64,000 nucleotides of DNA from Acidobacteriota bacterium (GTDB lineage: Bacteria; Acidobacteriota; UBA6911; RPQK01; JAJDTT01): positions 608,001 to 672,000 of the forward strand of contig OZ242374.1 of NCBI GenBank assembly GCA_965209055.1, in the 5' to 3' direction. Each line of letters starts with the position of its first letter. The first letter of the stretch is position 1. The notes under the pieces are model-generated. The model had not been told where the DNA came from. It ran no database searches and worked only from the letters and a program-made list of their open reading frames with translations. This document shows, piece by piece, positions 51,955-63,970 of the stretch. The position numbers and the translations under genes are program-made.

Positions 51955-52043
51955 GCCGGAGTGGCGGAATTGGCAGACGCACCAGACTCAAAATCTGGCG
52001 GGTGGCGACACCCGTGGGGGTTCGACTCCCCCCTCCGGCACCA
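51955..52043 (+). tRNA. tRNA-Leu (CAA)
   Basis: GCCGGAG/CTCCGGC acceptor, CCAGA-CTCAAAA-TCTGG anticodon arm, long variable arm, GTTCGAC, encoded CCA; extended -10 TGCTATACT at 51914-51922. Confidence 0.95.
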
Positions 52044-52291
52044 CTTTTGGGGGGGGTGGCGTTGACTTCCTTTTCTTCTCTTGCTACACATTTCTCTATA
52101 CCGTTTGCATCCCAGTGCGATGTGTGTGTCTTTGACTGAATGGCGCATCCGCAAGACTCGGAGTCTCGGCGACTGACTTTGCCCAGCCAATATCGACAGA
52201 GTTCCGCCACGGCTCGTGGTGAACGCCGGATTCCAAGCAACCGTAGCGGACGAAGAGACTTCGGTTCCGCAACTCATTAATGGGAGGGTTC

Positions 52292-55200
52292 ATGAGACCG
52301 ACAATCCACCTGTTTTCCTGCCTTCTACTAGTGCTGATCCTCGGCTTCCAGCTCGGTGGACCGGTTCAGGCGCAGCGCGCCCAGCAGGGCGCCGGAAACA
52401 TCCAGGGGACCGTCACCGACGAATCGGGCGGCTTGATCCCGGGTGTGGAGGTGACCGCGCGAAACGTAGCCACCGGCATCGAGAGGATGTCGGTGACCGG
52501 CGACAGCGGCTACTACCTGATCCAGGCCCTCGGGATCGGCGAATATGAGATCTCGGCCGGCTTGACCGGATTCAAGACCAAGGTCGTGACCGGACAGCGA
52601 GTCACCTCGGAACTGACCCGGACGGTCGATATCGTGCTCGAGGTCGGCGACGTGACCGAAACGGTCACCGTCGCGGGTCAGGCGACACTGGTCAAAATGA
52701 CCGACACCACCGTGGCCCACGCCCAGGACTCGGAAGTGCTGGAAGTCCTTCCGGTCCACATGAGCTTCTTTGTCCGGCAGTCCATGGTGCTGATCAACAC
52801 CCTGCCCGGTGTGATCTTCAAGCCCACCTGGGACGGGAACAAGGGGACCATCCACGGTGTGGGCGACAACGGACCCCACCGGAACCCCCTCGGGTACAAC
52901 ACCGACGGTCATCAGAGCAGCATCAACTGGCATCAGGGGCTGCGCGACGAAACGGGTCCTGCGCCCGAGTTGATCGAAGAGTTTCGCATCGAGACCAATC
53001 AGGACGCGGAGAAGGGGTTCAACTCCGGGGTGTCCGTCGAGATGATCACCAAGTCGGGAACCAACGAATTCCACGGGAGTGGTTTCTTGTTTCACCGCAA
53101 CGACATCCTGGACGCGCGCCGGTGGACCGCCTCCGGGAAGGGCGAACAGATCCAGAACGAGTGGGGCTTCATTCTGGGGGGCCCCATCGTCCAGGACAAG
53201 GCCTTCTTCATGATGAACTACACCGGTTACGAGTGGTCCACGCAACCGAGCGGACGGATCGGAACCGTCCAGACCGAGCTCATGCGGCAAGGGAACTTCA
53301 CCGAGATCCTCGGTGCGTCCCTCGGGACCGACGTCCTGGGCCGGGAAGTCCGGGCCGGCATGATCTACGATCCCCTCACCACCCGGCCCGACGGGCAGGG
53401 CGGCTTCCTGCGTGATCCCTTTCCCAACAACACGATTCCCGACAGCCGAATCGGCGGTGTCGCCAAGCACCTCATGACGGCGTATCCGGGACCGAACCGG
53501 GGCGGACTGACCAACAACTACGAGGGCGAGGGTTCCGACATCTTCGACATCGACAAGGTCTATCTCAAGACCGACATCGAGCATGAGGACCACAAGGTCA
53601 CCATCGGCTGGGAAGACACCCCCAATATGAAGTTGAGCTTCCTGTCGCCGGCCAACCGGCTGAACAGCGTCGCGGTCGAAAGCCGCGGCGTCCGGGTTCG
53701 CCTCAATCACCTTTGGACGGTAAATCCGTCTCTCCTCTTCAGCACCCGGCTCGGAATCAACCGGATCACCTACGGAGAGGGAAAATTGCCGCCCGCCTCG
53801 GACCACTGTCCGGGTGGTTGCGTCCAGGGTGCGTTGACCACCGCGATTCCCAGACTAAGGATTCAGAGCGCGGTGGGAGGCGGTTTCGGCGACAACACCG
53901 ACACGGCCCAACACTTCCAGTCGACGGTTCCCGTCTTCATGGACCTGTCCTGGACCAGCGGGAACCACAACGTGAAGGTCGGCGCCCAGCTCAGCATCTG
54001 GGCTGGAAAATTTCTCGTGGAAAACCACACGGCCGGCACCTACACCTTCCGCAACCGCACCAGCGGCCTGCCCGGTTATCCGGACACGGGTGACGGATTT
54101 GCCTCCTTCCTCATGGGCGACGTGGACGAAGTCCTCCAGGAGACCGCCAGCGCCAGGAAGGTCACCAGCTACAGTTGGGCCTTCTACGTTCAGGACTCCT
54201 GGCGAACGACGCCGAAGCTGACCATCAACTACGGCCTCCGCTGGGAGATCCCCATACCTTTCCACGAGTCTCACCGGCGCTGGGGCCTCATGGACATCCA
54301 CACTCCCAATCCGGAGGCGGGCGGCCTCCCGGGCGGCCTCACCTTCTACGGAGAGGGAGAGGGACGCAACGGGCGGGTCCGGGCGTTCAATGTCGGCTTC
54401 AGGAGTTTCGGGCCGCGGCTGGGTTTTGCCTATCAATTGAACGAAAAGACCGTGGCGCGGGCCTATTACGGACTGATGTACTTCCCCATGAACGGGGAAA
54501 TGGGCAATGGCTCCGGCATGCCCAACCAGGGTTTCGGCGCCTCGGTGACCGCAACGACCCCGGACTTCGGTCTGACGCCGGCCCTCAATTGGGATCAGGG
54601 AATCAGCATTCTGCCCACCAACCTGCCTTTCCTGAATCCTTCCCTGATCAACGGCTCCTCGGTCGGTTTCGTGGACGTCAACGAGACCCAGCAGGGGACC
54701 GCCCAGAGGTTGGGTCTGGCCATCGAGCGGGAGCTCCCCTGGGATATGGTGTTCACCGCCGAATACATCGGTCTCTTGGGCCACGGCGTCATCGGCACCC
54801 AGATCGCCCGTTACAACCAATTGCCCCTGAGCTATCTGGCTCTCGGCAACCTCCTGCTGCAGGATATCGATTCCCAGGCTGCCAGAGACGCCGGCTACAC
54901 CCGGCCCTATCCGGGATTCACCGGGACCGTGGGGCAGTCCCAGCGGCGCTTTCCCCAGTACAACTGGGTGGCCCAGTTGAACTCCCACTCGGGTTTCAAC
55001 CTATACCACTCGGGCATCTTCATACTGCAGAAGCGGTTCTCCTCCGGGTTGAACTTCATGTTGTCGCACACCATTGCCAAATCGCTGACCTCGGGGGACG
55101 TCCGGGAGAGGGGCAGCTTCGCGCCCCGCGCCGGGTCCTCCTTGCAGCATTGGGATACCTGGAGTTCCTCCAAGACGCTCGTGCCGTTCAACCGCTCTTG

Positions 55201-55759
55201 GGCGACCAAGGCAAGCTTTTCTTGGGAACTGCCCTTCGGACGAGGCAAAGCCATCGGCGGCGGCGTTGGCCGATTGGGCAACCTGCTGGTCGGCGGCTGG
55301 AGAGTCGCGGGTCACATCGTCTACCACGCCGGCAATCCCCTGACCGTCGGGACGGGACAGTTCCTTCCCTATATGGGACCTGCGTGGGCGGTCTGGAATC
55401 ACGGCGTCGGGGTCACGACCGGCGTCAATTGCGGCGACTACGATCCCAACCAGACGGGACGAGACCGTATCTTCAATCCCGCAGCATTCAGCACCGCGCC
55501 CAATTTCACGTTGGGGAACTTCCGCGTCCATCCCAGTGCGCAAAACTGCGGATTCATGCAGGAAGACATTTCCATCATGAAGGATTTCCAGATCAGCGAG
55601 GGCGTGAGTTTCCGCTTCGCGGCGGAGATGTTCAACGCCTTCAACCGGGTCAACTGGCGCGAGGCGGGCAACAACGTGGACAGTCCCCAGGGTTTCGGAA
55701 AAATCGGCAACACCTTGGATCCGCGGATCATTCAGCTCTACTGGAAGATCAACTTCTGA
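52292..55759 (+). CDS. TonB-dependent receptor, Oar-like, with carboxypeptidase-regulatory-like N-domain
   Basis: IQGTVTDESGGLIPGVEV, KSGTNEFHGS, YVQDSWR..PKLTINYGLRW, PRLGFAY, C-terminal PRIIQLYWKINF. Confidence 0.9.
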   Translation: MRPTIHLFSCLLLVLILGFQLGGPVQAQRAQQGAGNIQGTVTDESGGLIPGVEVTARNVATGIERMSVTGDSGYYLIQALGIGEYEISAGLTGFKTKVVTGQRVTSELTRTVDIVLEVGDVTETVTVAGQATLVKMTDTTVAHAQDSEVLEVLPVHMSFFVRQSMVLINTLPGVIFKPTWDGNKGTIHGVGDNGPHRNPLGYNTDGHQSSINWHQGLRDETGPAPELIEEFRIETNQDAEKGFNSGVSVEMITKSGTNEFHGSGFLFHRNDILDARRWTASGKGEQIQNEWGFILGGPIVQDKAFFMMNYTGYEWSTQPSGRIGTVQTELMRQGNFTEILGASLGTDVLGREVRAGMIYDPLTTRPDGQGGFLRDPFPNNTIPDSRIGGVAKHLMTAYPGPNRGGLTNNYEGEGSDIFDIDKVYLKTDIEHEDHKVTIGWEDTPNMKLSFLSPANRLNSVAVESRGVRVRLNHLWTVNPSLLFSTRLGINRITYGEGKLPPASDHCPGGCVQGALTTAIPRLRIQSAVGGGFGDNTDTAQHFQSTVPVFMDLSWTSGNHNVKVGAQLSIWAGKFLVENHTAGTYTFRNRTSGLPGYPDTGDGFASFLMGDVDEVLQETASARKVTSYSWAFYVQDSWRTTPKLTINYGLRWEIPIPFHESHRRWGLMDIHTPNPEAGGLPGGLTFYGEGEGRNGRVRAFNVGFRSFGPRLGFAYQLNEKTVARAYYGLMYFPMNGEMGNGSGMPNQGFGASVTATTPDFGLTPALNWDQGISILPTNLPFLNPSLINGSSVGFVDVNETQQGTAQRLGLAIERELPWDMVFTAEYIGLLGHGVIGTQIARYNQLPLSYLALGNLLLQDIDSQAARDAGYTRPYPGFTGTVGQSQRRFPQYNWVAQLNSHSGFNLYHSGIFILQKRFSSGLNFMLSHTIAKSLTSGDVRERGSFAPRAGSSLQHWDTWSSSKTLVPFNRSWATKASFSWELPFGRGKAIGGGVGRLGNLLVGGWRVAGHIVYHAGNPLTVGTGQFLPYMGPAWAVWNHGVGVTTGVNCGDYDPNQTGRDRIFNPAAFSTAPNFTLGNFRVHPSAQNCGFMQEDISIMKDFQISEGVSFRFAAEMFNAFNRVNWREAGNNVDSPQGFGKIGNTLDPRIIQLYWKINF

Positions 55760-55827: not shown

Positions 55828-56244
55828 ATGAAAGCCATCTCTTTGTTCCTTACGGTCCTCCTGGTCTTCTCGACGAGTCTGCAGGCCGGGCCCATCCCGG
55901 CTCAGAAGGCGATTCACCTCGTGTCGATCGAGGAGCTGAAGGGCCAGATCTCGGAACGGACGGCCGAACGCGCCGAAAATATTCGTGAAGTTCAGACCCT
56001 GCTCCGTCAGCCGGCGGTGCAGGATCGTCTGGGACACCTCTACGACCTGGAGCAGATCGCGGTCGCGGTACCCACGCTGGACGACCAGACACTGGCCCGG
56101 CTGGCGCGGGAAAGCGCTCAGATGAACGAGCAGTTCCAAGCCGGCCTGCTCGGCCTGTCATTCATGAGCTGGGTGGTCATCACGGGCCTCATCGTTTTCA
56201 CCGTGCTCGTTCTGATTCACACGTATGACCGGGGAGAACCCTGA
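55828..56244 (+). CDS. PA2779-like exported small protein with C-terminal hydrophobic tail
   Basis: Signal peptide ending LQA, helical core, TLDDQTLARLA...QAG, then a 25-aa hydrophobic segment. Confidence 0.65.
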   Translation: MKAISLFLTVLLVFSTSLQAGPIPAQKAIHLVSIEELKGQISERTAERAENIREVQTLLRQPAVQDRLGHLYDLEQIAVAVPTLDDQTLARLARESAQMNEQFQAGLLGLSFMSWVVITGLIVFTVLVLIHTYDRGEP

Positions 56245-56296
56245 CGCGTCACCGCGTGTAGGCGCGGCCGTTACTTCCCGCTCGGAAATCTCACCA

Positions 56297-56337
56297 TCGG
56301 GCTGGCCGCGCATGCCGCGGCCAGCCCGATATTTGTT
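56297..56337 (+). terminator. Strong hairpin / probable terminator
   Basis: ATCGGGCTGGCCGCG...CGCGGCCAGCCCGAT stem followed by ATTTGTT. Confidence 0.6.
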
Positions 56338-56402
56338 ATAGTCGCCTGATACGGCGTTCGGTTCCGCTCGCGAGTCCGGGAACGCTTCGACCAGTCGCGA
56401 TT

Positions 56403-58040
56403 ATGAAGAAGCAACACCACCCTCCGTTGCTGTCTCTGCTCCTCCTCATTGCGTCGCTTTCCTTTTCCGGCCCCGTGCTGGCCAAAGAAAAGGACGAGAA
56501 GAGAGACACCTCCGCCGTTCAAAAAGAGGAAGCGGAGGATTACTACCAGCGCTGGCTGAACCAGGATGTCACCTACATCATCAGCGACGAGGAGGAATCG
56601 GTCTTCAACAGCCTGACCAGCCCGGAGGAGAAGGAGTTGTTCATCGAACAGTTCTGGCGTCGCCGGGACCCGGACCTGAGGACGGCCATCAACGAATTCA
56701 AGGAAGAGCACTATCGGCGCATCGCCTACGTCAATGAGCGATTCTACGCCGGGGTGCCGGGCTGGAAAACGGACCGGGGGATGATCTACATCCTCCATGG
56801 ACCGCCTCATGAAATTGAGAGCTATGTGACCGGGGGCAATTACAATCGCTCCTTCAGCGAGGGCGGCGGCAGTACGGTGGTCCACCCCTTGGAGGTGTGG
56901 CGCTACCGGCACCTCGAGGGTGTCGGGGACGACATCGTTCTGGAATTCGTGGACCGCACCTACACGGGGACGTACAAGCTGGCCCTGTTCCCCGACGAAA
57001 AGGACGCCCTGCTCCATTTCGATGGATATGGCCTGACCCTGTCGGAACAGTGGGGCATCAGCGACAAGCAGCATCGTCCTTCCCTGATCGGCGGCAGGAG
57101 CACCGCCTACGAAACCCGGCTCCACAACAACAACCCCTTCCAGCGCTACGAGATCTTCTCTCGGGTCATGGTCCCCAAGAAGATCAAGTACAATGACCTC
57201 AAGGAGTTGGTCAAAGTGGAGATTGGTTTTTCCAACCTCCCCTTCCGGGTTCAAAGCGACTACTTCAAGCTCAACGACGGTCAGGTCCTGGTTCCCGTCA
57301 CCGTCGAGATCCGAAACAAGTTCCTTTCGTTCGAGCCCGAAGGCGAAGTGCACTCGGCCCGGGTCGGACTCTACGGCGTCGTCACCAGCCTCACCAACAA
57401 GTTCATCGAAGAATTCGATCAGGACCTGGTGATTTCGTTCGGACCCGAACGGCTGATGAGGGGCCTGGAGGGGCGGGCGACCTACCAGAAGGTCCTGCTT
57501 CTGGACAGCGGCACCCGCTACAAGCTCGACCTGATCATGAAGGACCTGACCAGCAACAACATCGGCGCCGTCAAGCATGGCATCATTCCACCGTCCAGCA
57601 TGCGGCAAAGGGAGAAGCTGAGCAGCAGCTCAATGCTGCTTTCCAATTACATGCAGGAGCTTCCCGAGGCGCCGGACCAGGACCAGATGTTCGTCCTGGG
57701 AGACGTCAAGATCCGGCCCAGTCTCGACAAGAGCTTTTCCAAGAAGCTCCCGCTGGGCGTCTACCTGCACCTCTACAACTTCGGCATGGACCAAGCCTCA
57801 AATTCTCCCCAGATGCAGGTGTCCTACCGAATCTCCCGCGACGGCGAAGTCATCGGCGAAGCCACCGACAGCCGCGGAGAATCGGTCCAGTTCTTCTCCG
57901 ACCGGAGAATGGTCCTGCTCAAGAGGTTGAGCCTGCGCACCCTGGAACCCGGCAAATACCGGCTCGAAGTCGAGGCCTGGGACCAGGTCAAGGACGTCAG
58001 GACCAGGATCCAGGAAAACTTCCAGGTCCAGGGAAGCTAG
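56403..58040 (+). CDS. GWxTD domain-containing exported protein
   Basis: Signal peptide, YYQRWLNQDVTYII, FWRRRDP, EEHYRRIAY.NERF, GWKTDRG.IYILHGPP. Confidence 0.92.
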   Translation: MKKQHHPPLLSLLLLIASLSFSGPVLAKEKDEKRDTSAVQKEEAEDYYQRWLNQDVTYIISDEEESVFNSLTSPEEKELFIEQFWRRRDPDLRTAINEFKEEHYRRIAYVNERFYAGVPGWKTDRGMIYILHGPPHEIESYVTGGNYNRSFSEGGGSTVVHPLEVWRYRHLEGVGDDIVLEFVDRTYTGTYKLALFPDEKDALLHFDGYGLTLSEQWGISDKQHRPSLIGGRSTAYETRLHNNNPFQRYEIFSRVMVPKKIKYNDLKELVKVEIGFSNLPFRVQSDYFKLNDGQVLVPVTVEIRNKFLSFEPEGEVHSARVGLYGVVTSLTNKFIEEFDQDLVISFGPERLMRGLEGRATYQKVLLLDSGTRYKLDLIMKDLTSNNIGAVKHGIIPPSSMRQREKLSSSSMLLSNYMQELPEAPDQDQMFVLGDVKIRPSLDKSFSKKLPLGVYLHLYNFGMDQASNSPQMQVSYRISRDGEVIGEATDSRGESVQFFSDRRMVLLKRLSLRTLEPGKYRLEVEAWDQVKDVRTRIQENFQVQGS

Positions 58041-58068
58041 GAGGGGCGACTTTCCTGTCGCCCATTCT
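58039..58068. repeat. REP-like palindrome; exact inverted partner of 60482-60510
   Basis: ggaggggcgactttcctgtcgcccattct (58040-58068) is the reverse complement of agaatgggcgacaggaaagtcgcccctcc. Confidence 0.75.
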
Positions 58069-58102
58069 TTCTTTTCTTACAACGTGAACGGGAGTTCGGC
58101 GG

Positions 58103-59818
58103 CTAGAAGCCGTCGCGCCAAGCCCCCGCTCCAACGCTGGGAAGCCCGGCCCAGTGATGAAAGGTCCGGCTCCTCGTATCCAGCCCCAGGAAAACATTCA
58201 GGAACTCCTGACCAAACACCGTGAGTCTCAAACCCACCCCAACGTCCTGAAACCACTCCCCCTCTCCCGGAAAAAACGGCCTGCCCGAGATGAACGCCGT
58301 ATCGCTGAAGACGAATCCCCCCACCTCGAGGAGCCCCCACCTCCACAGCCTCCGCCCCAGTTCCGCGCCCAGGAGAACAAAATCGCGCCCCATGGGACTG
58401 TTCCCTTTCCGGCCGTCCAGCAGTTCGGGATGAGCCTTGAGAGGCAACCGCGCGTCGGGCCCGATCCCGAAGAGAAAATAGTGATCCAGCGGCAGGTCCC
58501 GGCCCGAGACTCCACCCTGAATCGACAATCTCATCCGGGACTCCGTTTTCCCGGCCAGCGTCCAATCGATCCCCAAGCCTGACATCATCCTGTGGGAAGG
58601 ATCCCCCCCTCCCGCAAGAGGCGAAAAGGCATCGAACCGGGCCATCCAACTCAACCGGGCGTTCTCCCCCGCGTCGAGGCCCCAAAGCTGATTCCATTCC
58701 AGTCCCGCGGCCAGAAGATGAGGACTCCGTGTAACCTGGCTGGCGTCTCCGCCGAATCGAAATTTCTGGCGCTGGTATCCGCCGTGAAAGGCCAGGGACC
58801 TGCGTGCGGACATCAACCATTCGTAGCCGCCGAAGACCTTTTCCGTCCGGTAGTCATATTCCGTACCCGATGCGGCGTGGCTCCACTCCTCGTCCCGGAC
58901 ATCGAAGCCAAGACGCAACAGGTCGGAAGAAGACGAAACAAACGGAAACCAGGCGGATGCCCCGGCCCGTTTCCGGGGAGCGTCCCACCGAACCCCTCCC
59001 GCCAATCGCCGGCCCCGGCCGTCCCGCAACCCGAGACCGATCTCCCGATTGAGGACGGCTCGGGAGGAGTTTTCGATCAGGAACCCGGTCTTGTTGGAAA
59101 AAGAGTCGCTGGCTGGAGGAAGATCGACACGTAGATCCCAACGTCCCCCGGGCTGTGGGTCGAGCTGCCATCCGAACCGGGGTCCCAGCCTGAACCTGGT
59201 CTGGACCCAATACGCCTGCAGGAGCTGCCTCCGGTCCAGGACCTCCCCTTCATTGAATCGGAAGAGGGACTCCACCAGTTTCGGCGCCGCGTCCTCGGAA
59301 GCCGCGACCTGGATCTGAGCGATTTGAGGCTCGCCCAGCAGATTCCAGTGGTGCAGAGCCTCCAGCCGCCGGTCCTGGAGGTAGGAAAGGATGGCCAGGA
59401 AGCTCCGGGCGTAGCTGTTACTCGGGTCCAGCTGCAGCGCTGTCCCCAGGCTGGCTCGGGCCTTGTCCCTCCGGTCCTGTTTGAAATAAACGCCGGCCAA
59501 CTCCGCGTGGGCCGCCGCGTCGCCGGGCCTCAGGCGGACGGCGCGCTCCAGTTCCCGTTCGGCTTCGGCCCAACGCTCCTGCTTGGCCAGGGCCATGCCG
59601 AGCAGAAAGGTGGCCTCGCCGTTGGACGCCTCCTGTTGCAGAGCCTGCCGGAAGAGCAACTCGGCAGACTCGTATCGCTCCGCCTCCAGTTCCGTTCGGC
59701 CGCGGGAGAGTAGCTCTTCCGTGCCGGAGGCCAAGCCGGCCGGAGCGAAAAGCAGGCTCAGCAATACCAAGAGGGAGACGCGGACGGAAATCGGCGCCGG
59801 CCGGAAGTGCCCGAGCAT
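58103..59818 (-). CDS. TPR-repeat protein with POTRA-like segment and Omp85/BamA-like beta-barrel
   Basis: Signal peptide, about 4 TPRs, LFRFNEGEVLD segment, alternating beta-strands, C-terminal FSDTAF...DVGVGLRL. Confidence 0.65.
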   Translation of the reverse strand: MLGHFRPAPISVRVSLLVLLSLLFAPAGLASGTEELLSRGRTELEAERYESAELLFRQALQQEASNGEATFLLGMALAKQERWAEAERELERAVRLRPGDAAAHAELAGVYFKQDRRDKARASLGTALQLDPSNSYARSFLAILSYLQDRRLEALHHWNLLGEPQIAQIQVAASEDAAPKLVESLFRFNEGEVLDRRQLLQAYWVQTRFRLGPRFGWQLDPQPGGRWDLRVDLPPASDSFSNKTGFLIENSSRAVLNREIGLGLRDGRGRRLAGGVRWDAPRKRAGASAWFPFVSSSSDLLRLGFDVRDEEWSHAASGTEYDYRTEKVFGGYEWLMSARRSLAFHGGYQRQKFRFGGDASQVTRSPHLLAAGLEWNQLWGLDAGENARLSWMARFDAFSPLAGGGDPSHRMMSGLGIDWTLAGKTESRMRLSIQGGVSGRDLPLDHYFLFGIGPDARLPLKAHPELLDGRKGNSPMGRDFVLLGAELGRRLWRWGLLEVGGFVFSDTAFISGRPFFPGEGEWFQDVGVGLRLTVFGQEFLNVFLGLDTRSRTFHHWAGLPSVGAGAWRDGF

Positions 59819-59867
59819 ACGCCGGACATTGTAGTCAGTCGCGATTTCGGTTGTTGCCGCAGCCGGC

Positions 59868-60413
59868 TCAGGATGAAGTCGCGGGGATGACCAGAAGCGT
59901 CCAGTTTTCCAGCCGCGACCGCTGCTGCGCCATTTCTCCCGCCGGCCGCCGCTGATAGGGTCCCTTTACGGGATCGTGCACGATCCATTCCCGGCGGGAT
60001 TCGTCCCAGCCCACCAGCACCACATAATGATTGTTGGTCGTCAGGATGGACGGGTCGATCACGGTGATCAGTGGCCGTCCCTGCCGCAGGTGATCGAGCA
60101 TTTCGGCAGCGTCGCCGGCGAAGGAGTAGGCCTGGAACCCCTCCGCAGTAGCGAGCTTTTTCAGTTCGAGACCGCTCAGGCCCTTTTTCGGAAAGGGTTG
60201 GAAACGTCCCGCCAACTCACGATGATCGGCCGGATGCTTCCAGTAACGCAGCAGCATGGCGAGCACGGCGGGACCGCAGTAGTTCTCCGCCTGGCGGACA
60301 TAGGGGACTTCCAGGAAGAATCCCTTGGCGGGCGATTCCTCTTCTGCGTGTACGGTGAGGACCGATACGGCCAGCATCAGAATGAAAAGGACCCAGACCG
60401 GAAGCCTCAACAA
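59868..60413 (-). CDS. Exported C39-like (papain-fold) cysteine peptidase
   Basis: LEVPYVRQAENYCGPAVLAM (Gln, Cys), NHYVVLVG (His), HDP (Asp); signal peptide ending VHA. Start set at TTG 60413. Confidence 0.85.
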   Translation of the reverse strand: MLRLPVWVLFILMLAVSVLTVHAEEESPAKGFFLEVPYVRQAENYCGPAVLAMLLRYWKHPADHRELAGRFQPFPKKGLSGLELKKLATAEGFQAYSFAGDAAEMLDHLRQGRPLITVIDPSILTTNNHYVVLVGWDESRREWIVHDPVKGPYQRRPAGEMAQQRSRLENWTLLVIPATSS

Positions 60414-60481: not shown

Positions 60482-60539
60482 AGAATGGGCGACAGGAAAG
60501 TCGCCCCTCCCAACGGGGGACACGAATGTCCCCCCTCCT
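60482..60539. repeat. Tandem pair of REP-like palindromes
   Basis: gggcgacaggaaagtcgcccctcc followed by gggggacacgaatgtcccccctcct. Confidence 0.7.
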
Positions 60540-60559: not shown

Positions 60560-61300
60560 TCAACCGAATAGGTTCCTGGGGAGACCGGTCTGTTGGAACG
60601 CCTTGGCTCCCGCTTCGACGTGGCGCTTTCCCCGCTCCAGGGAGAAAGCCAGATGCGACGGGAGCAGAGCGTCGAAGTCGTAGTTCAGCAGCTTTTGCAT
60701 TGAGGCCGCGCAGTCCTGAATGCTCGAGTCACGGACGTTCTGGAGAACCACCGCACCGCCCCAGAACACCTGGTCACCTGCGATGAGATAGGTCCGGTCC
60801 CGTCCCTTCAGCAGGAGGGAATAGTGGCCGCTGCAGTGACCCGGAGTGGCGATGGACGTGAGTTCCAGACCTCCCACTTCGAACCGGTCCCCGTCCGCCA
60901 TTTCCCCCTCGACGTCACACGCCTCCCAGTGGAATTCCGCCGGATAGAAGCCGAAATCCTGTGCCCAGGCCAGACCGGTCTGTTCCGCATCCCCCTCGCG
61001 GATCGTCGGCGCGGCTTCCCTTCCGGCGATGACGGTGGCGCCCAGTTCGCGCTTCAGTTGAGCCAGCGCCCCCACATGGTCGGCGTGGTAGTGGGTGACG
61101 AAGATCCGGCGGATCTCCCCCGGATCCAGGCCGTCGTTCTCGATGTTGCGGAGGATCTTCCCGGGCCCGTCGAATCCGGCATCCACCAAGGCCAGTTCGC
61201 CTTCCCCCCGGATCACGAATACGTGACAGTCCATTCGATTGGAGATGTTGAAACCGGTGTCGCCGCCGCCCACCAGATAAACGTCTTCCGTCAGTTTCAT
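60560..61300 (-). CDS. MBL-fold metallo-hydrolase
   Basis: LVDAG, THYHADHVG, TPGHCSG, GD, PSH. Confidence 0.9.
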   Translation of the reverse strand: MKLTEDVYLVGGGDTGFNISNRMDCHVFVIRGEGELALVDAGFDGPGKILRNIENDGLDPGEIRRIFVTHYHADHVGALAQLKRELGATVIAGREAAPTIREGDAEQTGLAWAQDFGFYPAEFHWEACDVEGEMADGDRFEVGGLELTSIATPGHCSGHYSLLLKGRDRTYLIAGDQVFWGGAVVLQNVRDSSIQDCAASMQKLLNYDFDALLPSHLAFSLERGKRHVEAGAKAFQQTGLPRNLFG

Positions 61301-61338: not shown

Positions 61339-62343
61339 TCACTCCACCAGGGACGGCGCGGCGGTTTCCTTCGGCGCGGCTGCGTCGTACGCCGCGGCCA
61401 GGCGGGAGTACTCCTGCTCCTTGGCGTCCATCTCCGCCTCGAGCCGCTGTCTCTCGTCCCGAATGATCTTGTTGGCGTTGGTCGAAGCCCATCGCGAGTT
61501 GGGAACGTTTTTCAGACCGTCGTGGAGCCTCTGCACATGCCCCTTGGCCGAACTCGCGGCCGGCCCTTCCACCACCGCCGCGCGGGCATAGGCCAACAGG
61601 GCGGTGTCGTAGTCGTGGGTCCGGGATGCGGCAAACCCGAGACGGAACGCGGCATAGCCGTGTCCGGGATTCATCTTCAGAGTCTGTTTCAGGTGCTCCA
61701 CCGCCACCTCAAGGTCCGAAACCGGCTTTTTGGGAGACTTGGTCCACACTTCGAGGATCGAACGCCCCATTGCATAATGTGCGTCCGCCGCCCAACCCTG
61801 CTTCATGGCGATCCAATCGGACGTGTTCTGGCCCATCGGTTTCTCCAACTGATCCAACAGGCCGAGGGCCCGGGTGGCGTAATCGCTTGCCCGGTCGATC
61901 CTTTTGCTCTCGGAGTAGATATTGGCCAATGGCGCCAGCAACTCGACCGTGTCGGGAAGCTCCAGCAGAGCCTCCTCTCCGTGCCGAATGAAACGATCGA
62001 CATCGTTGCGCGAAAAAGCCGCGTTGGCAATCGCAAGGTGGGCCCACGCGGTCAATCCACTGTCGGGAAACTTCTTCAGGAATCTCTCTGCCAACCGGGA
62101 CTGCTTGCGAACGTCGCTGGTCTCTCTGATCTCCTCCCACGCTCGGAATTCCTCTCGGGACCGGGGCTTGCCCACGGTGCGGGCTTCGTCCAGCACCTGG
62201 TCTTCTACGAACTCCACCGGCGGGTCACCCTCAGATTGTTTCTCGTCCTGAGGCGGGAGCGGGTGGGCTGGAGTGGTGGCCACCGTCATGGCCAGCAACA
62301 GAACGGAGGAAAGCAACCGCGGATTCTTCATCATGATGTCCAA
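61339..62343 (-). CDS. Exported TPR-repeat protein
   Basis: Signal peptide, FLKKFPDS, multiple TPR-like helical pairs. Confidence 0.75.
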   Translation of the reverse strand: MDIMMKNPRLLSSVLLLAMTVATTPAHPLPPQDEKQSEGDPPVEFVEDQVLDEARTVGKPRSREEFRAWEEIRETSDVRKQSRLAERFLKKFPDSGLTAWAHLAIANAAFSRNDVDRFIRHGEEALLELPDTVELLAPLANIYSESKRIDRASDYATRALGLLDQLEKPMGQNTSDWIAMKQGWAADAHYAMGRSILEVWTKSPKKPVSDLEVAVEHLKQTLKMNPGHGYAAFRLGFAASRTHDYDTALLAYARAAVVEGPAASSAKGHVQRLHDGLKNVPNSRWASTNANKIIRDERQRLEAEMDAKEQEYSRLAAAYDAAAPKETAAPSLVE

Positions 62344-62485: not shown

Positions 62486-63970
62486 TCACGCCAACAGCTT
62501 GGTCACCACCTCGCCGCCCACGTCGGTCAGCCGGAAGTCTCGTCCCTGAAAGCGGTGGGTCAACCGGAGGTGGTCGATGCCGAAGAGATGGAGGATCGTG
62601 GCGTGGAAGTCATTGATGGAGACGGGCTCCTCCTCGACTCCCCAGCCGATGTCGTCCGTCCTGCCGATGACCTGTCCTCCCTGGATGCCACCGCCGGCCA
62701 TGAAGACGCTGAAGGCGAAGGGGTGGTGATCCCGGCCGGTGTTGATTTCCTCTTCTCCTCCGTTGTTCTCCGCCAACGGGGTCCGGCCGAATTCCGCGGC
62801 CCAGACGACCAGCGTCTCGTCCAGCATGCCGCGCTGCTTCAAGTCCTGAATGAGCGCGGCCACCGGCTGGTCGACGATCCCGCAGTTGGTGGGCAATTGT
62901 TTGTCCAGACTGCTGTGATGATCCCATGAGGCGTGATAGATGTTGACGAATCGTACGCCCCGTTCCACCAAGCGGCGGGCCAACAGGCAGTTGCGCGCGT
63001 AGCTGCCGAACACCCCGTTGGTGAAGCCGCGTCCTCGACTGCCGTCGGGATCTTTCCGGTTGACCCCGTACATCTCCAAGGTCTTCTCGCTTTCCTGGGA
63101 GAGGTCGATGAGTTCCGGCGTCGCTGACTGCATCCGGTACGCCAGCTCATAGGAGGCGATTCGAGACAGGATCTCGGGGTCGCGGGCCTGCTTGTAGTGC
63201 TGCCGGTTGAGCTGTTTCAGCGCCTCCAGGCTCCGGCGCTGGCATTCGTGCGGCAGGCCCTCAGGATTGGACAGGTGCAGCACCGGGTCTCCCTGGTTTC
63301 GGAAGAGCACCCCCTCGTAGCTCGAAGGCAGGAAGCCGCTGGACCAGTTGGAGGCGCCGCCGCTGGTCCCCCTGCCGGCCGTGAGCACGACGTAGCCCGG
63401 CAGGTCCTCCGACTCGCTGCCCAGGCCGTAGTTGATCCAGGAGCCCATCGACGGACGGCCGAAGGTGGGCACTCCCGAATTCATCATCAACTGTCCCGGA
63501 TGATGGTTGAAGGCCTCGGTGTGCATGGACCGGATCAAGGCGATGTCGTCGGCGCAGCCGCCGATATGGGGCAGGTATTCGGAGATCCTGATGCCCGATT
63601 CGCCATGTTTGGGAAACTTGGCATTGCTGCCCATCAGCACCGCCGACTCCTTTTTGATGAAGGCGAACCGGACCTTCTCCAACATGGACTCGGGCATGGG
63701 TTGGCCGTTCAGCTCCGTCAGTTTCGGCTTGGGATCGAAGAGGTCGATCTGGCTGGGAGCGCCCGCCATGAATAGGAATATGCAGCTCTTGGCCTTGGCC
63801 GGGAGATGGGTCGACATCATCTGCTGTCCCAGGGTTCCGGCGGCATTCGCCTGCCCCAGGAGTCCCTTCTCCGCCAGCATCGTCGTCAGGGCGATACCAC
63901 CCAGACCGCTGGCGCTGCTGGTCAGGAAGTCTCGACGCGATTCCAGAATTTTTTCCCTCAAAGAACTCAT
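62486..63970 (-). CDS. DUF1501 family Tat-exported protein
   Basis: SRRDFL Tat motif, FMAGAPSQIDLFDPKP, CLLARRLVERGVRFV, WDHH, EFGRTP, GRDHHP. Confidence 0.92.
   Translation of the reverse strand: MSSLREKILESRRDFLTSSASGLGGIALTTMLAEKGLLGQANAAGTLGQQMMSTHLPAKAKSCIFLFMAGAPSQIDLFDPKPKLTELNGQPMPESMLEKVRFAFIKKESAVLMGSNAKFPKHGESGIRISEYLPHIGGCADDIALIRSMHTEAFNHHPGQLMMNSGVPTFGRPSMGSWINYGLGSESEDLPGYVVLTAGRGTSGGASNWSSGFLPSSYEGVLFRNQGDPVLHLSNPEGLPHECQRRSLEALKQLNRQHYKQARDPEILSRIASYELAYRMQSATPELIDLSQESEKTLEMYGVNRKDPDGSRGRGFTNGVFGSYARNCLLARRLVERGVRFVNIYHASWDHHSSLDKQLPTNCGIVDQPVAALIQDLKQRGMLDETLVVWAAEFGRTPLAENNGGEEEINTGRDHHPFAFSVFMAGGGIQGGQVIGRTDDIGWGVEEEPVSINDFHATILHLFGIDHLRLTHRFQGRDFRLTDVGGEVVTKLLA

Follow-up and report, generated by a model that had tools for sequence, protein, structure and literature searches.

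An exported C39-type peptidase, a PA2779-like small protein and a TPR-POTRA-Omp85 protein as an apparent cell-envelope module in a soil acidobacterium

The subject of this report is a 64,000-nucleotide stretch of an Acidobacteriota genome (GenBank assembly GCA_965209055.1, contig OZ242374.1, positions 608,001 to 672,000 of the forward strand), hereafter called the window, and within it the genes that lie between positions 55828 and 60413. Open reading frames (ORFs) were called in all six frames of the window, and the deduced proteins were then scanned against the family models of Pfam and NCBIfam. An earlier note on this DNA, made from its letters without database searches, had placed four genes here, coding for a small exported PA2779-like protein, a GWxTD protein, a protein with TPRs and a beta-barrel, and a C39-like peptidase; the six-frame list bears out the coordinates of all four. 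Based upon sequence comparison, we propose that three of the products, namely the small protein, the peptidase and the TPR-POTRA-Omp85 protein, make up one cell-envelope module. Their features are as follows.

55828-56244, plus strand: small PA2779-like protein, 138 amino acids (ORF; NF033919 25.1 bits; family profile 6.7e-39; AF2 model)
55828-55887, plus strand: predicted Sec signal peptide of the small protein, residues 1-20 (read from sequence: MK, a hydrophobic run, then SLQA ahead of a G)
56077-56145, plus strand: leader-like amphipathic helix and candidate cleavage site of the small protein, L84 to G106 (conserved alignment columns; end of an AF2 helix)
56140-56145, plus strand: codons of A105-G106 of the small protein
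56146-56217, plus strand: predicted C-terminal hydrophobic membrane anchor of the small protein, residues 107-130, followed by an 8-residue tail
58103-59818, minus strand: predicted outer-membrane protein, 571 amino acids, with signal peptide, TPR, one POTRA-like domain and Omp85-fold barrel
59339-59725, minus strand: TPR region of the 571-residue protein
59120-59326, minus strand: POTRA-like domain of the same protein
58145-59044, minus strand: barrel of the same protein
59868-60413, minus strand: stand-alone, predicted exported C39 cysteine peptidase, 181 amino acids, TTG start at 60413, Cys46 codon at 60276-60278

The small protein opens with the signal-like segment MKAISLFLTVLLVFSTSLQA (read from sequence) and contains TLDDQTLARLA, ten further residues and then QAG (A105-G106), after which come a hydrophobic segment (residues 107-130) and a tail of eight residues. 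Export, the TLDDQTLARLA stretch, QAG and the hydrophobic end had been described in the earlier note, and they hold, except that the spacer between TLDDQTLARLA and QAG had been counted as nine residues. The resemblance to PA2779 claimed there also holds, as a shared architecture: the NCBIfam model NF033919 (PA2779_fam) gives 25.1 bits and does not reach its curated cut-off of 40, and the protein has no Pfam match at E <= 0.01 and no DUF6627 match at E <= 1. Among its homologues in the genome and in related loci, NF033919 matches 26 of 27 at E <= 0.01 (best 1.2e-23) and DUF6627 matches 17 of 27; the latter also matches 98 of 147 aligned family members. Judged by these profiles, the window protein is a divergent member of the wider PA2779/DUF6627 family. 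Searching with the small-protein profile retrieved 3,998 cluster representatives at E <= 0.001, of which 1,562 were found at E <= 1e-10.

An AF2 model of the small protein, made with 147 sequences (mean predicted local distance difference test score, pLDDT, 77.8), contains a signal helix and helices at residues 34-59, 62-68, 74-83, 86-105 and 111-135. A105-G106 closes the periplasmic helix 86-105, and a break of five residues precedes the membrane helix 111-135. The architecture of the family, comprising signal peptide, four-helix periplasmic domain, [AG]G and C-terminal membrane helix, is thus present in the window protein.

Nothing in the small-protein family is better conserved than the Ala/Gly-Gly site. 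An [AGS]G pair lies at most 16 residues before the C-terminal hydrophobic run in 147 of the 150 best representatives (of 3,998), as AG in 138, GG in 6 and SG in 3; the three exceptions have AAG just outside the searched span, TG, and a sequence truncated after AGG. In the alignment of 147 rows, G106 is Gly in 144, and L84, A93, L89 and L92 are kept in 143, 134, 130 and 128 rows, respectively. The A105 column holds Ala in 120 rows and Gly in 25 (Ala or Gly in 145), and F103, at position -4 from the site, is hydrophobic in 133 of 139 rows. Conservation of the AG site had been set beforehand as a test of the earlier proposal, and the 144 glycines in 147 aligned members speak for it. Since these columns are the most informative of the alignment, the strongest constraint falls upon the last periplasmic helix and its Ala/Gly-Gly end, which is what a double-glycine peptidase would be expected to need. 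The segment just after AG is moderately conserved in the same alignment (L108, S/T109, N/D110, L113 and I116). Of the 150 best representatives, 147 passed the transmembrane and motif checks of our script, and 134 of these end within 0-3 residues of the hydrophobic run; so short a tail leaves no cytoplasmic domain, and the functional part must therefore be periplasmic or in the membrane.

The genome carries three genes of the small-protein family: one in the window, and two orphans, which lie at G000:2156624-2157007 and 2486262-2486672. The orphan paralogs (L009:1456-1881, minus strand, and L011:1474-1887, plus strand) possess the full LDDxTLAxLA...F[RQ]AG motif and the membrane tail, and are far from any peptidase gene. 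Across six genomes of the genus there are 2-5 small-family copies each and one peptidase each.

Other observations were made on this family. A second conserved patch, H30-V-V-S33 (window positions 55915-55926), follows immediately after the signal peptide, with H in 115 rows and V32 in 120. Lineages in which TPR-POTRA-Omp85 is a separate gene show it most clearly, and the barrel-less group departs from it, a contrast that is confounded by phylogeny; the patch is a possible docking strand. In the 211-residue protein P0027 the helical domain occurs twice in tandem, with FAAG and the membrane tail on the second copy only. The 3' neighbours of the two orphan genes code for a MORN-like repeat protein in one case and a large exported protein in the other.

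The peptidase passes the cut-offs of two Pfam families, Peptidase_C39_2 (PF13529; 61.1 bits against 24) and Peptidase_C39 (PF03412; 51.1 bits against 22). Read from the TTG at 60413, its N-terminus, MLRLPVWVLFILMLAVSVLTVHA followed by EEE, resembles a signal peptide; the frame is open up to 60563, and in two relatives from the genus only 11 codons are open above the equivalent start. The catalytic set Gln41/Cys46/His129/Asp147 is present, with C46 and H129 invariant in 29 relatives and Q41 and D147 invariant in the 10 closer ones. The two Pfam scores and these four residues sustain what had been noted before, a stand-alone C39 peptidase with a signal peptide and intact Gln, Cys, His and Asp. 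When a profile of the peptidase family was compared with solved structures, the best matches were the double-glycine peptidase domains of ComA (2e-14), LahT (6.8e-12) and PCAT1 (4.5e-11). In the profile alignment the conserved C-G, H-Y and D-P motifs of the family coincide with those of the ComA peptidase domain, whose aligned residues we take to be the catalytic ones of ComA. The single peptidase sequence, searched against solved structures with phmmer, gave nothing at E <= 0.01.

NCBIfam models of ABC-fused C39 proteins score 16-18 bits with the window peptidase, and NF033920, the model of the PA2778 family, scores 55.1 bits (cut-off 150), over profile positions 4-147 of 255 only, that is, the C39 half. 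In the genome of 6.08 Mb the window peptidase is the sole match to Peptidase_C39 or Peptidase_C39_2, and with a single C39 domain there can be no C39-bearing ABC exporter. The remark in the earlier note that no ABC transporter is present can thus be extended to the whole genome for exporters of that kind; ABC transporters in general were not listed. A protein-database search with the peptidase for longer (fused) homologues gave no match, which is weak evidence, as fused forms were found in the genome loci described below. Complex prediction with peptidase residues 24-181 and small-protein residues 22-116, using alignments of 29 rows, returned a score of 0.00 in two runs made without controls. 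Many C39+TPR proteins of approximately 300-316 amino acids come from Acidobacteriota metagenomes.

Downstream of the peptidase gene, 49 nt away and in the same orientation, comes the barrel gene. Pfam TPR families cover roughly residues 34-160 of its 571-residue product. In an AF2 model built with 20 sequences (mean pLDDT 83.5, predicted template modelling score 0.74), DSSP assigns a barrel of about 15-16 strands, and the elements E165-173, H179-185, H196-208, E216-221 and E227-233 constitute one beta-alpha-alpha-beta-beta POTRA-like unit. Foldseek against the PDB matched the model to TamA (1.2e-13), BamA, CdiB, FhaC and Sam50, the top matches having a probability of 1.00; there were at least 500 matches at E <= 0.001, and all 49 of the matches listed are Omp85-family chains. 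Going by this model, the protein is an Omp85-fold barrel of the BamA/TamA type, which puts a fold to the co-oriented TPR and beta-barrel protein of the earlier note, the TPRs being recognized by Pfam. Among the 14 Pfam families matched at E <= 0.01 there is no Omp85 (Bac_surface_Ag), ShlB or POTRA, so that sequence annotation sees only a "TPR protein".

Conserved in the barrel family are F504-x-D506, D525-x-G527 and a long loop with LxLRAH (H463); these resemble the loop-6 (V/I)RG(Y/F) and strand (F/G)xDxG hallmarks of Omp85 proteins, to which they may be equivalent. A search for homologous proteins with the barrel gave 22 matches, close relatives only, one of which, at 93% identity, is labelled Acidobacteriota. 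The possibility that the TPRs of this protein are specifically like those of PA2778 was considered and rejected: they score 27.6 bits with the TPR half of NF033920, and some 28 other matches in the genome, which has many TPR proteins, are stronger.

The distribution of the three proteins was determined in 301 genomes of the phylum, with the peptidase and the small-protein profile taken at E <= 1e-5 and the POTRA-barrel profile at E <= 1e-10, and the resulting lists were compared by hand. The peptidase was found in 39 genomes, the small-protein profile in 43 and the barrel clade in 20. Peptidase and small protein occur together in 34 genomes, the peptidase only in 5, the small protein only in 9, and neither in 253. 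Strong barrel matches (E <= 3.1e-79) are confined to 18 genomes; each has a single barrel copy, and from none of them is the peptidase or the small protein missing. As for the two weaker barrel matches, G010 has a small gene on the same contig approximately 650 nt off, and G270 has neither other part at these thresholds. These counts include the unpublished genome G049, without which each of 39, 43, 34, 20 and 18 falls by one; since related genomes are not independent, no statistical test is given. The pattern of co-occurrence spans many families of the phylum. The earlier note had staked its proposal in advance on the genes being found together elsewhere, and this is what the 34 genomes of 301 with two of the parts, and the 18 with all three, display.

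Gene arrangement was studied in stretches reaching 8 kb to either side of 38 of the 39 peptidase matches outside the window's own genome (the one in G049 was omitted), the parts being mapped by BLAST and local profiles. The small gene lies directly upstream of the peptidase gene and co-oriented with it in 25 of the 38 loci. Four loci, all from the window's genus, have it on the opposite strand within the stretch, and in a fifth member of the genus it is 9.6 kb away. One locus has a weak partial match and seven have none, and six of these eight belong to the weakest peptidase matches (E >= 3e-9). As regards the barrel, 15 loci have it as a separate gene directly downstream of the peptidase gene, 6 have it fused to the peptidase and 1 has it in convergent orientation; it was not found in 16. 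Frames with the fused C39-TPR-POTRA-barrel arrangement measure about 640-940 codons from stop to stop; five were recognized by profile match and the sixth (L065) by 54% identity over 685 residues to L066. These natural fusions strengthen the earlier suggestion that the barrel could hold the peptidase. Among the 16 barrel-less loci, three are at a contig edge and in seven the peptidase has a C-terminal extension of 145-204 residues, which probably represents the canonical C39-TPR form, TPR having been confirmed by BLAST in one of the seven.

In the window, the small and peptidase genes are 4.2 kb apart and on opposite strands. The older arrangement is likely to have been small gene, peptidase, barrel; L047, a relative from the same order, still has it, with the same OMP_b-brl_4 gene ahead of it. 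Members of the window's genus have the peptidase-barrel pair reversed and the GWxTD gene in between.

Around and between the genes of the module the window contains the following.

51955-52043: tRNA-Leu(CAA) gene, just upstream of the OMP_b-brl_4 gene
52280-55759, plus strand: OMP_b-brl_4/CarboxypepD_reg outer-membrane protein (family scan)
56296-56330, plus strand: terminator-like hairpin just 3' of the small gene, with a 15-bp stem, 12 G-C pairs and a T-rich tail
56403-58040, plus strand: GWxTD-domain protein, 545 amino acids (TIGR04514, 109.8 bits)
58040-58074, plus strand: copy of a 35-nt G+C-rich hairpin repeat, 3' of the GWxTD stop codon
60476-60510, minus strand: second copy of the hairpin repeat, between the MBL-fold and peptidase genes
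60560-61300, minus strand: MBL-fold protein
61339-62343, minus strand: second TPR protein, exported
62486-63970, minus strand: further ORF

The GWxTD protein, which the earlier note had counted with the system, is certainly present (TIGR04514, 109.8 bits), but its inclusion did not survive: it is one of 20 paralogs in the genome, and only 7 of the 38 loci have such a gene, five of them being from the genus; in the other two, L051 and L064, it is 3-4 kb away from the module. It is a neighbour, outside the conserved module. At least 10 of the 20 GWxTD genes have a gene for a TPR protein within approximately 3.5 kb, and GWxTD and TPR proteins may be a recurrent pair of their own.

The strong, terminator-like hairpin at 56296-56330 suggests that transcription of the small gene stops short of the GWxTD gene. 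A pair of identical hairpins is located past the GWxTD gene (58044-58063) and past the MBL gene (60487-60506, minus strand). Because terminator-like hairpins follow the small, GWxTD and MBL genes, there seem to be three transcription units: the small gene, to which the upstream OMP gene may belong; the GWxTD gene; and the peptidase-barrel pair. The 35-nt copies that contain the latter two hairpins are 97% complementary, inverted, and flank the peptidase-barrel unit. At two or fewer mismatches the repeat has 10 copies in the genome, four of them exact. Similar hairpins flank the peptidase-barrel unit in the genus relatives G200 and G170, and are found on one side only in G088. Contigs of public runs break at the repeats, and no clear second orientation was seen. 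The idea that the peptidase-barrel unit is an invertible segment was therefore rejected, there being 10 copies of the repeat, flanking copies oriented as terminators past gene ends, and no clear second orientation. As each flanking copy sits just past a gene end, the repeat looks like a terminator or REP-like family.

The nearest models to the MBL-fold protein are subclass B3-like (94 bits against a cut-off of 240), and synteny of its gene and the adjoining TPR gene with the module is restricted to the genus. An OMP_b-brl_4/CarboxypepD_reg gene directly 5' of the small gene is found in the genus, in G076 (64% identity, L047:1474-4944) and, more distantly, in G015 (L064:9256-13047); synteny may have been conserved at the level of the order, or the arrangement may be due to chance, genes of this kind being abundant in the phylum. 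Ahead of the small gene there is a sigma-54-like element, which is kept only among near-identical members of the genus and is for that reason uninformative.

Because of the linkage, the fusions, the C39 membership of the enzyme, the conservation of the site and the predicted topology, we consider cleavage of the small protein after A105-G106 by the peptidase to be the best-supported mechanism; it is putative, and in our estimation an even call. According to this scheme Sec would export the small protein, whose C-terminal helix would keep it attached to the inner membrane while the helical domain faces the periplasm. The peptidase, also exported by Sec, would be docked on the periplasmic TPR/POTRA arm of the Omp85 protein, to which it would be covalently attached in the fused relatives, and would bind the leader-like helix L84-F103 as double-glycine peptidases bind leader peptides. 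The cut after A105-G106 would free an 85-residue helical domain from its anchor. There is one C39 domain for three small paralogs in the genome, that is, one enzyme and several candidate substrates, and the two orphan paralogs, which have the same motif, would be cut by the same single peptidase. Perhaps the freed domain is then handed to the Omp85 barrel for surface display or release, which is our preferred guess; the barrel may serve to keep the enzyme at the outer membrane, or else to carry the product onward. Taken to its full extent, the scheme would be an undescribed envelope sorting route, in which a periplasmic double-glycine peptidase held on a TPR-POTRA-Omp85 protein frees Sec-exported proteins that are retained in the inner membrane by [AG]G plus a helix, and these are passed to or across the outer membrane. 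This extension we think rather unlikely; if true, it would add to type V secretion a relative made of three parts, and to the C-terminal sorting signals a new kind.

Several points weigh against the cleavage scheme. The conserved hydrophobic residues of the helix, at -4, -8, -11, -14/-15 and -18, fit the classical leader pattern of -4, -7, -12 and -15 only partly; moreover, the classical leader is N-terminal and its enzyme cytoplasmic. Canonical PA2778/PA2779 pairs are barrel-less, as are seven of the 38 loci, which have an extended peptidase and no barrel match, so export through the barrel cannot be the core function and the barrel cannot be essential to the core chemistry. In the genus, the small gene stands apart from the peptidase operon, on the opposite strand and with its own terminator-like hairpin. 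An invariant pair of small residues at a helix-to-membrane junction could be structural. Lastly, a list in the transposon-sequencing preprint 10.1101/733030 gives PA2778 as a candidate toxin gene with a small protective gene downstream of it, an arrangement that speaks for an inhibitor.

This last point leads to an alternative in which the small protein is an uncleaved partner, whether inner-membrane anchor, adaptor or immunity-like pseudo-substrate inhibitor, and the peptidase acts on other envelope proteins. The pairing and the conserved helix-AG would fit a tight binder as well as a substrate, and in the same list PA2778 is one of the putative enzymes whose genes precede small genes conferring protection from type VI killing, a toxin-immunity-like setting that is not followed up in the preprint. 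For a binder, on the other hand, it would be a specific coincidence to have Gly and Ala/Gly in precisely the pair of positions where double-glycine peptidases need them, and several small paralogs to one peptidase per genome suit substrates better than a dedicated inhibitor. Furthermore, the window peptidase bears a Sec signal and for this reason is not a type VI effector. On balance we rate an uncleaved partner as doubtful. Less probable still is a sortase-like reaction, in which [AG]G and the membrane helix would be a sorting signal and the peptidase would transfer the new C-terminus to a lipid, glycan or outer-membrane acceptor, as is proposed for exosortase, rhombosortase and PorU. The motif, the short spacer and a membrane helix at the very C-terminus in 147 of the 150 best representatives have the look of such a signal; several proteins with the same tail share one enzyme in each genome, and papain-like cysteine peptidases do form acyl-enzyme intermediates. 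We nevertheless judge it improbable, since the basic cluster that typically follows the helix in known signals is missing (0-3 residues in 134 of 147), the tail occurs on only 1-5 small proteins per genome, all of one family and not diverse cargo, and an acceptor is not evident.

The Omp85 protein could also export the peptidase itself, in the manner of two-partner or type Vd secretion, for action at the surface or outside the cell. The C39-TPR part would then be a passenger N-terminal to POTRA and barrel, like the patatin of PlpD; the fused order signal, C39, TPR, POTRA, barrel mirrors the order passenger, POTRA, barrel of type Vd proteins, and CdiB and FhaC are among the structural matches. 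Such a passenger would be unable to reach its strictly paired partner, which is predicted to be anchored in the inner membrane with the conserved site facing the periplasm. The canonical C39-TPR forms lack a barrel altogether, and there is one POTRA as compared with the two of TpsB proteins, all of which makes surface export of the enzyme a poor prospect. Very improbable, in our opinion, is a bacteriocin-like precursor with the helical domain as leader and the hydrophobic peptide after AG as the active product. In double-glycine systems the product is indeed the part past the site, and the post-AG segment is moderately conserved, but the C-terminal part is poorly conserved in sequence and no more than a membrane helix, the released peptide would stay in the inner membrane of its own producer, and neither an immunity gene nor an exporter is evident. 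In a comparison with Nif11-type leaders, Pfam Nif11 weakly matched just 2 of 147 small-family members (best E 0.015); a Nif11 match usable for profile building was obtained in only 3 of 151 genomes of the phylum. That the neighbourhood is a chance assembly of unrelated envelope genes might be suspected from the window itself, where 4.2 kb, opposite strands and an unrelated GWxTD gene separate the small and peptidase genes; it is scarcely credible in view of the co-occurrence, adjacency and fusion seen across many families of the phylum.

Cleavage of the small protein by the exported peptidase, the reading that we prefer, can be set beside several known systems. With the PA2778/PA2779 pair (NF033920/NF033919, DUF6627) the window shares the association of a TPR-linked C39-type peptidase with a small exported protein that has a conserved helix, [AG]G and a C-terminal anchor. 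It differs from that pair in scoring under the curated cut-offs (25.1 against 40 and 55.1 against 150), in that the window peptidase is without TPRs of its own, these being located on a separate POTRA-Omp85 protein, and in having the small gene on the other strand. The C39 domains of ComA, LahT and PCAT1 have the same Cys/His core, and the candidate site of the window protein, Ala/Gly-Gly after an amphipathic helix, is of the kind that they cut. Those domains, however, are cytoplasmic and ABC-fused and remove an N-terminal leader during export, whereas the window enzyme stands free and bears a signal peptide, and its cut would fall close to the C-terminus of a protein already exported by Sec.

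Members of the Omp85 superfamily (TamA, BamA, the TpsB proteins FhaC and CdiB, and PlpD of type Vd) resemble the 571-residue protein in its predicted barrel and POTRA-like domain. Unlike them it has a single POTRA behind TPR repeats and no Pfam Omp85, ShlB or POTRA match, and it is tied to a C39 peptidase and a small anchored protein and not to beta-barrel or TpsA substrates. Two-partner secretion differs likewise, in that the window has one POTRA-like unit and not two, and the partners are a helical protein of 138 residues and a C39 peptidase in place of a TpsA protein with its TPS domain. The signals of sortases, exosortases and rhombosortases share the motif and helix with the window family, which lacks the basic cluster and the diverse cargo and whose enzyme is a C39 peptidase. 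LapG/LapA and the PorU/PorV proteins of type IX secretion presumably offer an analogy only, that of an envelope peptidase cutting a tethered protein at a small-residue site near an outer-membrane protein; we take their peptidase families, substrates and outer-membrane partners to be unrelated to those of the window.

In the text passages returned by a full-text literature search there was no study of the module and no paper on the Omp85-coupled form, and PA2778/PA2779 were mentioned in passing only; the passage of PMC3985676 that names PA2779 calls it hypothetical. The PA2778/PA2779 pair is catalogued but uncharacterised. If cleavage takes place as we propose, it would give this family (3,998 cluster representatives, including the pair of Pseudomonas aeruginosa) a first testable function. 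The 571-residue protein belongs to an Omp85 clade that sequence models miss and for which a defined partner pair is now at hand, which bears on the role of Omp85 proteins other than BamA. C39 peptidases are textbook cytoplasmic domains that remove the leaders of ABC-exporter substrates; a free C39 enzyme that is exported and goes with an Omp85 barrel and with an anchored partner bearing a double-glycine-type site would, if true, extend C39 chemistry to the periplasm.

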